A stretch of DNA of 64,000 nt from an uncultured Prevotella sp. (GCF_937930345.1 NZ_CALGLB010000031.1), one strand, 5' to 3'; shown: positions 43,118 to 45,669, numbered from the stretch's first letter. A program made the numbers and translations. Notes: generated from the sequence alone by a model not told the origin.

Positions 43118-43351
43118 TTATCTGTTGAACTTGCTCTTTTTTTCCACATTCAGACGTGCCGCCTCCACTTTGGCAAGGGCGTTCAATGCTTTGGAAGACT
43201 GCCGACGGTCAATGTTCAGTCTCAAATGGCAAAACGGACATTGCAGATAGGTAGCCGAAAGCAATTCTGTTATACTCGTGGCAATGAATCTGCCGCATTG
43301 CGGACAGGCAAAACCCGGAACACGTTGTTCTTGTTGATTATTGTTTGCCAT
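43118..43351 (-). CDS. zinc-ribbon protein (cassette gene D)
   Basis: 77 aa with CPQC...(20 aa)...CPFC. Its start overlaps the end of gene C by 14 nt. Confidence 0.55.
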   Translation of the reverse strand: MANNNQQEQRVPGFACPQCGRFIATSITELLSATYLQCPFCHLRLNIDRRQSSKALNALAKVEAARLNVEKKSKFNR

Positions 43352-43976
43352 TTCCTTCTTCCTCCTTATTTTCTTTTTCTGAAGATGGCCCGTCTATATC
43401 CTCTATCTGAAGATTGTTGGTTGTCAGATGAAGCAGGTTCGCCACACCGCCGGGCATGTCAGCCTGTTGCATCTTGACTTTTATCTTCATATTGGCTGTC
43501 AGCGATTGTTGCGTTGTCGTCTTCACACTGCCGCTGGCACTGCTTGGAGCCATAGATACACGCAGTTTGACACCGTCGTTGCTGTCTTCTTCCGATTGGG
43601 GGGCACCTTTCTTAAATGAAAATGTGGCATCCTTGTCCGCACTGATCGCATCTACGACCTGTATGTCGAAATCGAAATTCGCTTCTTTTACCTGCAACAG
43701 AGGAAGCGGGACAAGGGTCAGCAGCGGAATGCTGATTCTTTGCAGATGTGTGCCATTCACATCCTGGCTCGTGAATGTGAAATCAAGTGTCCGTAACTTG
43801 CCGCCCTTGCCCGTTTCCTTGTCGTATTCTTCAAATGCCAGTTCTATCAGGTAACTCAGATACCTTCTGGCGGAAATGGTATCCGCATCTATTGTGGCAA
43901 CCAATGGGCCGGAAATAAGGTCTTTCAGTTCCATCACTTGGCTGCTGATGCTCTTTTGATTGTTCTCACCTGCCAT
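43338..43976 (-). CDS. hypothetical protein, paralogue family member C (acidic tail)
   Basis: Shares LISGPLVATIDAD, ISIPLLTLVPLPLLQV and DMPGGVANLLHL blocks with gene A. It may correspond to the family databases call DUF2589; that is from memory and unverified. Confidence 0.6.
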   Translation of the reverse strand: MAGENNQKSISSQVMELKDLISGPLVATIDADTISARRYLSYLIELAFEEYDKETGKGGKLRTLDFTFTSQDVNGTHLQRISIPLLTLVPLPLLQVKEANFDFDIQVVDAISADKDATFSFKKGAPQSEEDSNDGVKLRVSMAPSSASGSVKTTTQQSLTANMKIKVKMQQADMPGGVANLLHLTTNNLQIEDIDGPSSEKENKEEEGNGKQ

Positions 43977-44006
43977 GATTATGTTTTTTTATTGTTATAC
44001 AATAAT

Positions 44007-44792
44007 TTATTTGTTCTCATCCTGATACAGTCTGATGTCGCGAGGGTCAAGTTTCAGATGGAGTGTGTGGACACATTCGTCAGGAAGTTTCGCTATTTCT
44101 TCTGAATTAACCGTTACATCAAGAGAAGGAACGAATTTTTTGCGTTTCAAGTCCAAATCCTTCAGGGACTCGTCCAGCACCGTCTTAACCGACTGACGGA
44201 TCTCCTGCCTTACCTTTTCGCGAAGCAAAGTGCCGCCCGCCTGGTCAAAATGGAAATTGAAATCCTTGTTGTTAAGTACTTCTTCCTCGCAGGTCGAAAT
44301 CACGCATTTCATGATTTGCCTCCGGTTGGCAGTACCGTCGTCGTTGATAAGTGTGAGGAACGACTCACGGAATGATTTAAGAATCTTACGACTCAGATAG
44401 GCACAAAAATCACGTTTCATGTCCGGAGCGCTGTTCAGCATGAGTACGGGGTTGTCCTCCCCTTCAGCGCTGTTCGCGGGCATTGCTTCCTGAAATGTTT
44501 TCAGCACACTGGCCAATACGGTATTGGCAAGCTGCGAACTGATCTCTTTCGAGAGTGTCCGCAATGCCGGATAATTGATTTCAAACTGTTCCTTTTGGGC
44601 GGAATCGTCCTTTACTCCATATTGGATGCCCAGCTCGAGTTCACCGAGCGCAATGGCAGGCAGGTGGAACCTTTCCAGACGTCCGTCCCGTCTGTAAATC
44701 TCTTCCAGCGATGCGGCATACATGTTGGCTTCATGTTGTGCCGATACCATATCGCGGAGGATTGAACTGATAATTGTACTTAATTGAGCCAT
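44007..44792 (-). CDS. hypothetical protein, distant paralogue B with a helical insertion
   Basis: The N-terminus IISSILRDMVSAQHEAN and the strand FHLPAIALGELELGIQYGV align by eye with the A/C motifs. Confidence 0.5.
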   Translation of the reverse strand: MAQLSTIISSILRDMVSAQHEANMYAASLEEIYRRDGRLERFHLPAIALGELELGIQYGVKDDSAQKEQFEINYPALRTLSKEISSQLANTVLASVLKTFQEAMPANSAEGEDNPVLMLNSAPDMKRDFCAYLSRKILKSFRESFLTLINDDGTANRRQIMKCVISTCEEEVLNNKDFNFHFDQAGGTLLREKVRQEIRQSVKTVLDESLKDLDLKRKKFVPSLDVTVNSEEIAKLPDECVHTLHLKLDPRDIRLYQDENK

Positions 44793-44823
44793 AAGATTCT
44801 TTTTTAGGTTTTAATGATCTGAA

Positions 44824-45669
44824 TTACTGTTCTACTTTCACATTCAGCTTTTTGTCGGCATTGTCAGTAACTTCAACAGTGTAATCACCGATAGCCTTCA
44901 ATTCAAAGACTGCGCTCTCTGCATTGGTTTCAGTAGCGTTGCAAGGATTTCCGTTTCCATCTGTTACTTTGACTTTTTCAGATTCGAACAGACCGTTACA
45001 GTTCTTGTAAGTGACAATCAAAGTCGCATTGCCGTTCGGGTCAAGAGTCAACTTGCGAGCATTGACTTCAAGTGTACCTTTTGGATTGCTGACATCCATC
45101 GCGCTGCCCAACAGTTCAAGCACTTTTGCCAGACCTGCAGGCATACTGTCCTGTCCGGCCTTCACCGCCACGTCCATTGTGTATTCCACACTGTAACGTG
45201 AATCCTGTGTAGCCTTTGAGTCCTTTTTGGATGAATAGTTGGCTTTCATGTCTGCTTCCACGCTGAAAGGTCCCCAGCCGGCTTTGGCTTTGATGTTTGC
45301 CCCGGCATCTATCGCCTCAGAAGATGTGTTCTCCTGAACCGAAGAAGATGATGCAGAAATGTTGGCCTTGAAGTTGATGTCCACGTTCTGGATTGCAATG
45401 TACGGGATAGGTACAATGGTCAGCAACGGAACATTCAGCTGTACCATGCGTCCGTCCTGCATGAACTGGAACGATACGTTCACTGCCTCTTTCTGATTTG
45501 TCTGCGGATTGACCGTCAGACCTACTTCCTGAATAAACTGCCATGATGTCTGGGCTGCCATAGCCTGTGCTTCGATTGCAGCTTTCAACGGACCTCCGAT
45601 AATGGAACCGAAGGGAATCGCTTGTAGCGCACTGGTTGCTACTTGCGAAGGGGTGGTGTCAATTGCCAT
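44824..45669 (-). CDS. hypothetical protein, paralogue family member A with an Ig-like C-terminal domain
   Basis: IIGGPLKAAIEAQ, LNVPLLTIVPIPYIAIQNVDINF and DSMPAGLAKVLELL blocks, then a beta-sandwich-like tail of about 85 aa. Preceded by AGGAGG-N5-ATG. Confidence 0.6.
   Translation of the reverse strand: MAIDTTPSQVATSALQAIPFGSIIGGPLKAAIEAQAMAAQTSWQFIQEVGLTVNPQTNQKEAVNVSFQFMQDGRMVQLNVPLLTIVPIPYIAIQNVDINFKANISASSSSVQENTSSEAIDAGANIKAKAGWGPFSVEADMKANYSSKKDSKATQDSRYSVEYTMDVAVKAGQDSMPAGLAKVLELLGSAMDVSNPKGTLEVNARKLTLDPNGNATLIVTYKNCNGLFESEKVKVTDGNGNPCNATETNAESAVFELKAIGDYTVEVTDNADKKLNVKVEQ

Follow-up and report, generated by a model that had tools for sequence, protein, structure and literature searches.

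A DUF2589 gene cassette of Bacteroidota linked to regulators and peptidoglycan hydrolases, and its possible role in breaching the cell envelope

Introduction

What three adjacent and divergent genes of an uncultured Prevotella sp. could be doing together, and in which company they do it, is the question raised by the DNA stretch analysed here, a window of 64,000 nucleotides (nt) (GCF_937930345.1 NZ_CALGLB010000031.1). A first reading of this DNA, made from the sequence alone, had recognized at 43338-45669 three paralogues sharing a GPL helix and a PLLT(I/L)VP(I/L)P strand motif, had tentatively suggested DUF2589 as the family name and had compared the set to hetero-oligomeric assemblies such as shells, tubes or pores. 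Profile, genomic context and structural analyses now indicate that two of the genes, A and C, are DUF2589 members, that the third, B, is probably a remote relative and that the trio belongs to a cassette of conserved gene order, linked across phyla to dedicated regulators and to peptidoglycan hydrolases, for which a role in a regulated breach of the cell envelope is tentatively proposed.

The three genes, given by their position in the window, strand and product length in amino acids (aa), are the following:

44824-45669, minus strand: gene A, 281 aa, an A-type DUF2589 protein with the DUF2589 core at aa 19-188 and an immunoglobulin (Ig)-like tail at aa 194-281
44007-44792, minus strand: gene B, 261 aa, a member of an uncatalogued family, with a helical bundle at aa 67-215
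43338-43976, minus strand: gene C, 212 aa, a C-type DUF2589 protein without the GWGP hairpin described below and with an acidic KE-rich tail

The A-type proteins alone form more than 3,600 clusters at 90% identity. In the searchable literature on DUF2589, PF11655 and LytTR with Bacteroides conjugative elements, no functional study, structure or context for DUF2589 was found, and the family appears only in passing mentions, in a Bacteroides fragilis expression table and for the Archaeoglobus genes AF0414-AF0417. An experimentally defined function, which the sequence-only reading had named as something that would overturn it, was thus absent from that literature.

Relatedness of the three proteins

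The interval 43338-45669 is exactly occupied by A, B and C as three adjacent minus-strand open reading frames (ORFs), and all the peptide strings quoted in the first reading were found in them. Against the Pfam model PF11655 (DUF2589), which has a gathering threshold of 23 bits, protein A scores 103.8 bits (E = 1.4e-29, model positions 1-152 of 154) and protein C 70.7 bits (E = 2.3e-19, model positions 2-152 of 154), both well above the threshold. Protein B has no match in Pfam (at E ≤ 0.1), NCBIfam or PHROG, so the suggested family name is right for A and C, while B is not a member by the Pfam model. The relation between A and C is already detected by pairwise BLASTP (22% identity over ~196 aa, E = 1e-4), and the comparison of their family profiles, each a hidden Markov model (HMM), places the similarity beyond chance (98.4% probability, E = 9.6e-15). 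The shared blocks that had been aligned by eye correspond to conserved columns of a 48-sequence alignment, namely GPL..A, PLLT.VP.P and MP.G...L.L. By these sequence and profile comparisons, A and C are significantly related members of a known, functionally uncharacterised Pfam family.

Regarding B, BLAST comparisons with A and with C are not significant. An exhaustive representative search collected a B family of 423 representatives at E ≤ 1e-3; none of its members scanned against Pfam reaches a threshold, and among 55 diverse members only 2 match PF11655, weakly (E = 0.019). A shallow profile comparison of B with A aligned block 2 alone, at 8.8% probability. When diversified profiles were used, residues 3-64 of B aligned to residues 19-108 of A, covering blocks 1 and 2 (hhalign probability 41.8%, P = 2.7e-4), with a score of 26 against scores of 9-15 for the controls, consisting of four unrelated cassette families and reversed queries. 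In addition, a B-family HMM deprived of the insert (residues 67-211) was searched against 7747 ORFs from 92 related loci, and the A-type DUF2589 ORFs ranked next after the B proteins (best E = 8e-4), with 91 of them and not one unrelated ORF at E < 1; the reverse of this search was not significant. The B-to-A alignment is colinear, pairing helix with helix, then 'FpvPnallseleleLkfai' with 'IVPIPYIAIQNVDINFKANI' and 'Psldvive' with 'EYTMDVAVKAG'. Block 3, which had been confined to A and C, has a weak equivalent in B, where AKLPDECVHTLHL aligns with ADMPGGVANLLHL of C (P = 0.22, not significant alone). These suggestive, not conclusive, comparisons indicate that B probably represents a highly divergent offshoot of DUF2589, lying outside the family by the family's own criterion, and that the B family is probably an uncatalogued sister family of DUF2589. 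The claim of three paralogues therefore stands for A and C, which are significantly related, and is weakened for B, only a probable remote relative according to the profiles.

Conservation of the cassette in Bacteroidota

The distribution of these genes was followed in 80 loci from one-genome-per-species contigs, comprising Bacteroidota plus a few contigs from metagenome-assembled genomes labelled otherwise, and covering Prevotella, Bacteroides, Dysgonomonas, Parabacteroides, Alistipes, Odoribacter, Rikenella and Marinilabiliaceae. Besides A, B and C, three other genes recur in these loci, which in the window correspond to:

45807-46274, minus strand: stand-alone LytTR DNA-binding regulator, a 155-aa ORF (PF04397, 65.4 bits, E = 5.6e-18)
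43118-43351, minus strand: 77-aa zinc-ribbon protein (CPQC...CPFC) with weak zinc-ribbon matches only, the first 14 nt of its gene overlapping the end of C
41333-42133, minus strand: endolysin-type N-acetylmuramidase, 266 aa from the ATG, with PF11860 and an N-terminal peptidoglycan-binding domain, PF01471

Their presence among the species loci is as follows:

Gene A: 80/80
Gene B: 74/80
Gene C: 77/80
Zinc-ribbon gene: 75/80, directly after C
LytTR gene: 62/80, of which 53/80 directly upstream (≤1.5 kb, same strand)
PF11860 muramidase: 52/80

A, B, C and the zinc-ribbon gene are all present in 72 loci, and in 72/72 of these they are colinear and compact, with B between A and C. In 45 loci the muramidase gene lies downstream, separated from the zinc-ribbon gene by a median of 458 nt; the remaining 7 were scored by the script as upstream, and in at least one of them (L043) the muramidase gene really comes after the zinc-ribbon gene and slightly overlaps it. 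A variant lacking B, formed by LytTR, A, C and the zinc-ribbon gene, occurs as a second copy in Segatella copri (L089 6826-8418, L090 and L092, from S. copri and co-binned contigs), where it is followed by a 320-aa protein without Pfam matches. The A protein of this variant is the top non-self match of the B-family HMM.

Association with peptidoglycan hydrolases

The muramidase of the window matches PF11860 with 238.9 bits (E = 5.2e-71) and PF01471 (PG_binding_1) with E = 3.1e-17; its best PHROG match is an endolysin (E = 4.6e-95), and it has neither a signal peptide nor a hydrophobic segment. Endolysins of the PF11860/DUF3380 type are proven muramidases (PMC5674055). This family is the neighbour in most Bacteroidota loci, being replaced in two of them (L054 and L067) by a GH108 endolysin with PG_binding_3.

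Outside these loci, other enzymes and other regulators are found beside DUF2589 genes. A replicon of Burkholderia stagnalis encodes a DUF2589 pair and, downstream and overlapping the second gene of the pair, a GH24 phage lysozyme, with a divergent LuxR-type regulator. On a deltaproteobacterial plasmid, a DUF2589 pair is accompanied by a helix-turn-helix (HTH) gene of the LuxR type, by five small ORFs and by the gene of a PF11860 muramidase. On two plasmids from Vibrio, a C-type and an A-type gene occur together with the genes of a conserved 91-aa protein and of an SLT/MltF-like transglycosylase, in a co-directional arrangement in pVDT1 and a divergent one in pFP31. Moreover, a plasmid of Fulvitalea (Cytophagales) holds A, B, C and the zinc-ribbon gene behind a two-component regulator, and tandem or paired DUF2589 paralogues are also seen in Streptomyces. 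The regulators beside the module thus differ by lineage (LytTR, LuxR/GerE and Mor), and lineage-specific dedicated regulators are what would be expected for a dangerous function. Since four unrelated hydrolase families (PF11860, GH108, GH24 and SLT) and several regulator families accompany DUF2589 pairs, a functional partnership is argued for, and not a chance linkage. By inspection of their N-termini, the PF11860, GH108 and GH24 enzymes have no signal peptide (the hydrophobic-segment scan covering the window muramidase only), which would make a lesion of the cytoplasmic membrane necessary for them. Concerning the shells, tubes and pores of the first reading, the zinc-ribbon, LytTR and muramidase context that it had overlooked points to the pore, not to a shell or a tube.

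In the proteobacterial loci, a protein of ~91 aa without cysteine pairs and without a Pfam match follows the DUF2589 pair, at the position of the zinc-ribbon gene (L093 7899-8174, L094 7894-8178, L107 6613-6993 and L108 6851-7126). On pVDT1, from Vibrio sp. 16, the DUF2589 pair is closely preceded by the genes of an HlyD adaptor and of a C39-peptidase ABC exporter annotated as being of the bacteriocin-export type (L108 939-4294), and AbiE toxin-antitoxin genes lie downstream of the pair.

Structural features of A, B and C

Searches of the PDB by sequence and by profile found no solved DUF2589 relative. In the AlphaFold2 (AF2) model of A, the core has a predicted local distance difference test (pLDDT) value below 50, while the tail (aa 194-281) reaches ~90. 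A fold search with this model, informative for the tail only owing to the low confidence of the core, retrieved Ig, filamin and invasin domains, and the tail also has a weak Pfam Filamin match; the Ig-like beta-sandwich first proposed for this region is thereby well supported. A C-terminal sorting domain of the type 9 secretion system was also considered for the tail and ruled out, as A has neither a signal peptide nor a Pfam match to such a domain. In ten loci (L044, L045, L048, L049, L051, L054, L057, L060, L064 and L072), the A-type ORF has ~350 aa instead of ~280, so that its C-terminal tail may be duplicated or extended, and the tail of the Vibrio A-type proteins, judged by eye, resembles a charged coiled coil.

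For the core of A, the predicted elements are a long helix at 20-49, six long strands and a short helix at 179-186. After the N-terminal helix comes the hydrophobic PLLTIVPIP motif, then a set of four strands of strictly amphipathic character, among them a hairpin with a GWGP turn, and finally the C-terminal helix. The hydropathy averaged over the A-type family alternates strictly at residues 92-104 and 120-145, around the conserved GWGP turn, with a beta-moment of up to 3.06, giving one or more amphipathic hairpins long enough to span a membrane. This alternating pattern is retained from Bacteroidota to the Vibrio, Burkholderia and deltaproteobacterial members, and in the 48-sequence alignment the C-type proteins do not have the GWGP hairpin. 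The hydrophobic-segment scan found none in B, C, the zinc-ribbon protein, the muramidase and two further cassette proteins, p178 and p111, described below; in A there is one borderline stretch (aa 75-93), corresponding to the proline-rich motif PLLTIVPIP.

The AF2 model of B shows an N-terminal helix, a low-confidence stretch over block 2, a bundle at 67-215 with pLDDT 80-94 and a low-confidence C-terminus, so that the helical insertion of about 150 aa noticed in the sequence is seen as a confident bundle. A fold search with this model against the PDB and viral structures gave only generic helical matches (TM-score below 0.3). The acidic KE-rich tail attributed to C is also present. Compared with the PF11655 model, which A and C match in full, A adds the Ig-like domain, and B lies outside the model with its helical insert of ~150 aa.

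The co-conservation and fixed order of A, B and C (72/72), together with the low-confidence monomer cores, would fit a hetero-oligomer, and the poorly predicted monomer fold of the A core is in line with a fold that reaches completion only within an assembly or a membrane. The beta-hairpin pore-formers (aerolysin, alpha-haemolysin, gasdermin and MACPF) are alike in pattern only, as soluble proteins with Ser/Thr-flanked, strictly amphipathic hairpins, an aromatic/glycine turn and an expected oligomerisation; no sequence or fold similarity to them was detected, the core model of A being too poor for a fold comparison.

Comparison with lysis and secretion systems

In phages and type 10 secretion systems (T10SS), a holin makes the membrane lesion for a signal-less endolysin. 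Similar to phage lysis cassettes and T10SS (ChiH/ChiP in Salmonella or Serratia; TtsA in S. Typhi), the cassette combines a signal-less endolysin-type hydrolase, of interchangeable type, with tight dedicated regulation and small partner genes outside phage. It differs from them in having no multi-pass holin and no clear spanin pair, in belonging to a family nearly absent from phages, and in its conserved partners, which are soluble-looking DUF2589 paralogues of ~200-280 aa plus the zinc-ribbon protein. Membrane segments were surveyed in 47 distinct cassettes, from A to the muramidase and just beyond, and no ORF with two or more transmembrane segments was found in them. By analogy, then, the cassette appears most like a lysis or T10SS module, but it has no recognisable holin.

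Downstream of C, the genes of the cassette run on without real gaps, and three of them have not been listed above:

42572-43108, minus strand: p178, 178 aa, function unassigned, no family match and no hydrophobic segment, with homologues in 21/80 loci
42233-42568, minus strand: p111, 111 aa, function unassigned, no family match and no hydrophobic segment, with homologues in 2/80 loci
40894-41355, minus strand: 153-aa protein carrying one hydrophobic segment (aa 9-28), its gene beginning before that of the muramidase ends

At the positions of p178 and p111 the content differs between loci. The segment of the 153-aa protein could be a signal peptide or a membrane anchor, and judging from its sequence the protein could serve in immunity, be spanin-like or be a holin with a single transmembrane segment. 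A protein of ~150 aa with a single N-terminal hydrophobic segment stands beside the muramidase in ~20/47 distinct cassettes. Small lipoprotein-like or signal-bearing proteins are encoded after the zinc-ribbon gene or beside the muramidase in some loci, none of them being conserved across the set.

An origin of the cassette from phages was considered and rejected, as DUF2589 is nearly absent from viruses. Among 50,697 phage genomes, it occurs in one record, unannotated and of 4 kb, and among 2.9 million viral contigs in eight loci, six of which lie within a flank's length of the contig end. The only distant locus in a viral contig (L104 1-2001, IMG/VR) has an apparently truncated C-type gene, ending 190 nt before a 443-aa ORF that looks integrase-like by eye. 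This suggests that a cassette was hit by an insertion, and not that the virus encodes a copy of its own.

Proposed mode of action

The explanation that is preferred here, as possible rather than probable, is that the A-B-C trio forms the core of a regulated module for breaching the envelope, in lysis or release, in which a DUF2589 hetero-oligomer would be the membrane-active partner of the wall hydrolase. It is favoured because the DUF2589 paralogues and the zinc-ribbon protein are the only conserved partners, because the A-type proteins have a hydrophobic segment and hairpins, and because the monomer fold is unpredictable. Firstly, a dedicated transcription factor, here LytTR, would turn the operon on. 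Then, A, B and C would form a hetero-oligomer, probably with the zinc-ribbon protein, from subunits without signal peptides or transmembrane helices. This complex would attack the cytoplasmic membrane, with the A-type protein giving the hydrophobic PLLTIVPIP segment and the amphipathic GWGP beta-hairpin, and the resulting lesion would let the signal-less muramidase reach the murein, so that the envelope is opened. The DUF2589 complex would thus take the functional place of the holin, with no sequence or architecture kinship to holins. The outcome may be altruistic lysis, release of a product or of DNA, or a non-lytic secretion. In this picture, the homology of A and C, the gene order, the linkage to hydrolases and regulators across phyla and the lack of multi-pass holins are observed, and the oligomer, its membrane activity and the outcome are inferred.

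A bolder form of this proposal, which we regard as doubtful, is that DUF2589 represents a new class of non-helical membrane-breaching proteins, soluble paralogues that would assemble together as a pore of beta-hairpins, inserted in the cytoplasmic membrane of the producing cell itself, and would replace holins in non-phage lysis or secretion modules of several bacterial phyla. In such a pore, the A-type protein would contribute the insertion hairpin, the B- and C-type proteins would be partner or regulatory subunits and the zinc-ribbon protein would be an assembly factor.

Several observations weigh against the breaching of the producer's envelope by these proteins. Tails with an Ig-like fold, like the one in A, are usually located outside the cytoplasm. 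The amphipathic hairpin pattern is not specific to pore-formers and is equally expected for one face of a soluble beta-sandwich. The SLT/MltF-like enzyme of Vibrio has a Sec-type N-terminus, so the DUF2589 pair is not required for its export, and the ~150-aa single-segment protein beside many of the muramidases could, from its sequence, itself be a single-transmembrane holin or a spanin. In addition, no recognised wall hydrolase was found in at least 14 Bacteroidota loci with adequate flanks, nor in the Francisella and V. aquimaris loci. The proteins A, B and C are recognized neither by PADLOC nor by PHROGs. Archaeoglobus is an archaeon that is not known to have murein, and DUF2589-related genes there fit poorly with a strictly murein-linked role. 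Such genes have been noted in A. fulgidus, where the four adjacent short genes AF0414-AF0417, termed 'DUF2589 related', are reported to be induced on lactate (PMC3949148).

In the main rival reading, the DUF2589 hetero-oligomer would itself be the cargo, as an extracellular pore-forming bacteriocin or toxin or as a surface assembly binding through the A tail, with the hydrolase aiding its passage through, or release from, the producer envelope, as in type 10 secretion, or being a co-delivered effector with the 153-aa protein as its immunity protein. The tail of A differs by lineage (Ig, double-length or coiled coil), as would a target-binding part; the Sec-exported Vibrio enzyme plausibly serves the DUF2589 proteins and not the reverse, and pVDT1 has the C39-peptidase ABC exporter and HlyD genes just upstream. 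The exported protein is translationally coupled to the muramidase, like effector-immunity pairs, and T10SS loci have cargo beside the hydrolase (PMC10847048, PMC13284979). However, signal peptides are absent from A, B and C and the cassette has no conserved holin or exporter, so that the cargo would have to cross the inner membrane unaided; moreover, the putative immunity protein is found in a minority of loci, and sequence and profile searches gave no similarity to known toxin or bacteriocin families. On balance, a cargo role is considered rather unlikely.

Regulation of the cassette

The regulation proposed for the envelope-breaching module may be affected, in the window, by an insertion sequence (IS), and the region upstream of A holds the following elements:

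46249-47861, plus strand: IS110-family element of ~1.6 kb (PF01548 and PF02371), with the transposase at 46468-47577
45772-45800, minus strand: candidate LytTR box, GTTCGTAAA-N11-GTTCGTAAA, a perfect 9-bp direct repeat with a period of 20

As seen by the alignment with an uninterrupted locus (L001) and by junction mapping, the LytTR gene is interrupted by the IS110 element after its first six codons or so. The LytTR ORF as listed begins at a TTG in IS-derived sequence, the native coding sequence reaching only 46248, and the orphaned native start lies at ~47862-47882. Because the gene is thus cut off from its start codon and promoter, the cassette may be silent or deregulated in this strain. 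The identical insertion is found in the metagenome locus L003 and is absent from L001, L002 and L004-L006.

The GTTCGTAAA repeat stands between the LytTR gene and A, ~100-130 nt upstream of the A start codon, and is unique in the window, where shuffled sequences lead to an expectation of 0. Several other lineages have repeats with a period of 20 or 21 nt at -115 to -143, but most loci do not; a LytTR box common to all loci was sought and no shared sequence was found. The arrangement resembles that of the streptococcal stand-alone LytTR regulators of bacteriocin, lysis and competence genes, which likewise have the regulator directly upstream and a 9-bp promoter repeat, but no gene for a cognate membrane inhibitor was identified here, and the spacer has 11 nt, compared to the 12 nt usual for LytTR repeats.

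Mobile-element setting

The surroundings of the cassette are, by their gene content, the accessory region of a Bacteroidales conjugative element. At 48185-58439 there is a high-GC conjugative backbone with a 1963-aa methylase/SNF2-helicase, topoisomerase III and a DUF4099/DUF3945 protein, and the GC content shifts at ~32 kb from ~36% to 45-57%, where the boundary of the element probably lies. Between this point and the cassette, the minus strand holds, at 32287-39241 and 39638-40777, an Mfa-type fimbrial operon that encodes an Mfa2 anchor, three Mfa-like fimbrillins, one of them with BspA-type leucine-rich repeats, and an OmpA-like protein, together with the adjoining gene of a multi-pass membrane protein of 379 aa in which an AraC-type HTH is weakly matched. 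The identical cassette is found in many human-gut metagenome contigs, and a cassette ~50-70% identical in CTnDOT-like and mobilisable elements of S. copri, beside RteABC, TraG and relaxase genes. In related elements the Mfa-type operon flanks the cassette on the opposite side, the cassette being intact.

The proximity of the Mfa-type operon and of conjugation genes, in the window and in related elements, could mean that the muramidase remodels the wall for the conjugation apparatus or the fimbriae, as envelope-spanning machines often have dedicated lytic enzymes, while the DUF2589 proteins would be cytoplasmic regulators, chaperones or inhibitors of it, or would merely travel along on mobile DNA. 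This is held to be very improbable: the pairing persists in Burkholderia, in Vibrio and on the deltaproteobacterial plasmid, where neither fimbrial nor conjugation genes were seen in the flanks examined; the cassette stays intact in elements that differ in its position relative to the fimbrial operon; and the exchange among four unrelated hydrolase families speaks for a functional link and against hitch-hiking.

The same accessory location, in conjugative and mobilisable elements and beside the 1963-aa methylase-helicase, would also suit an abortive-infection island directed against phages or competitors, where a breach of the envelope triggered by infection would kill the host before the phage is released. 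The AbiE genes near the pair on pVDT1, the transfer of the module as a unit between element backbones and the near absence of DUF2589 from phage genomes are in line with this idea. Yet no PADLOC model matches the cassette proteins (A, B, C, p178 and p111 having no NCBIfam or PHROG matches either), the dedicated activator upstream suggests an induced expression and not a constitutive one gated by a sensor, and here the regulator is split by IS110 with the rest of the cassette retained. A defence role is consequently judged improbable; it concerns the biological role of the cassette and is compatible with the envelope-breaching mechanism favoured above.

Significance

DUF2589 is a large family with no assigned function and is very common in human and animal gut Bacteroidota, and its tie to four unrelated hydrolase families provides a first testable functional hypothesis for it. 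The export holin of TtsA, the signal-less peptidoglycan hydrolase of a T10SS, is still unidentified (PMC13284979). If the DUF2589 complex is indeed a holin substitute, it would represent a new non-helical route for a signal-less hydrolase across the inner membrane, which is the open problem for TtsA, and similar non-holin partners might explain other signal-less secretion muramidases whose holin was never found. It would also offer a new regulator-controlled lysis switch for the engineering of Bacteroides. As a compact cassette spread by conjugative elements, it may govern lysis, the release of products or DNA and vesicle formation in dominant gut bacteria.

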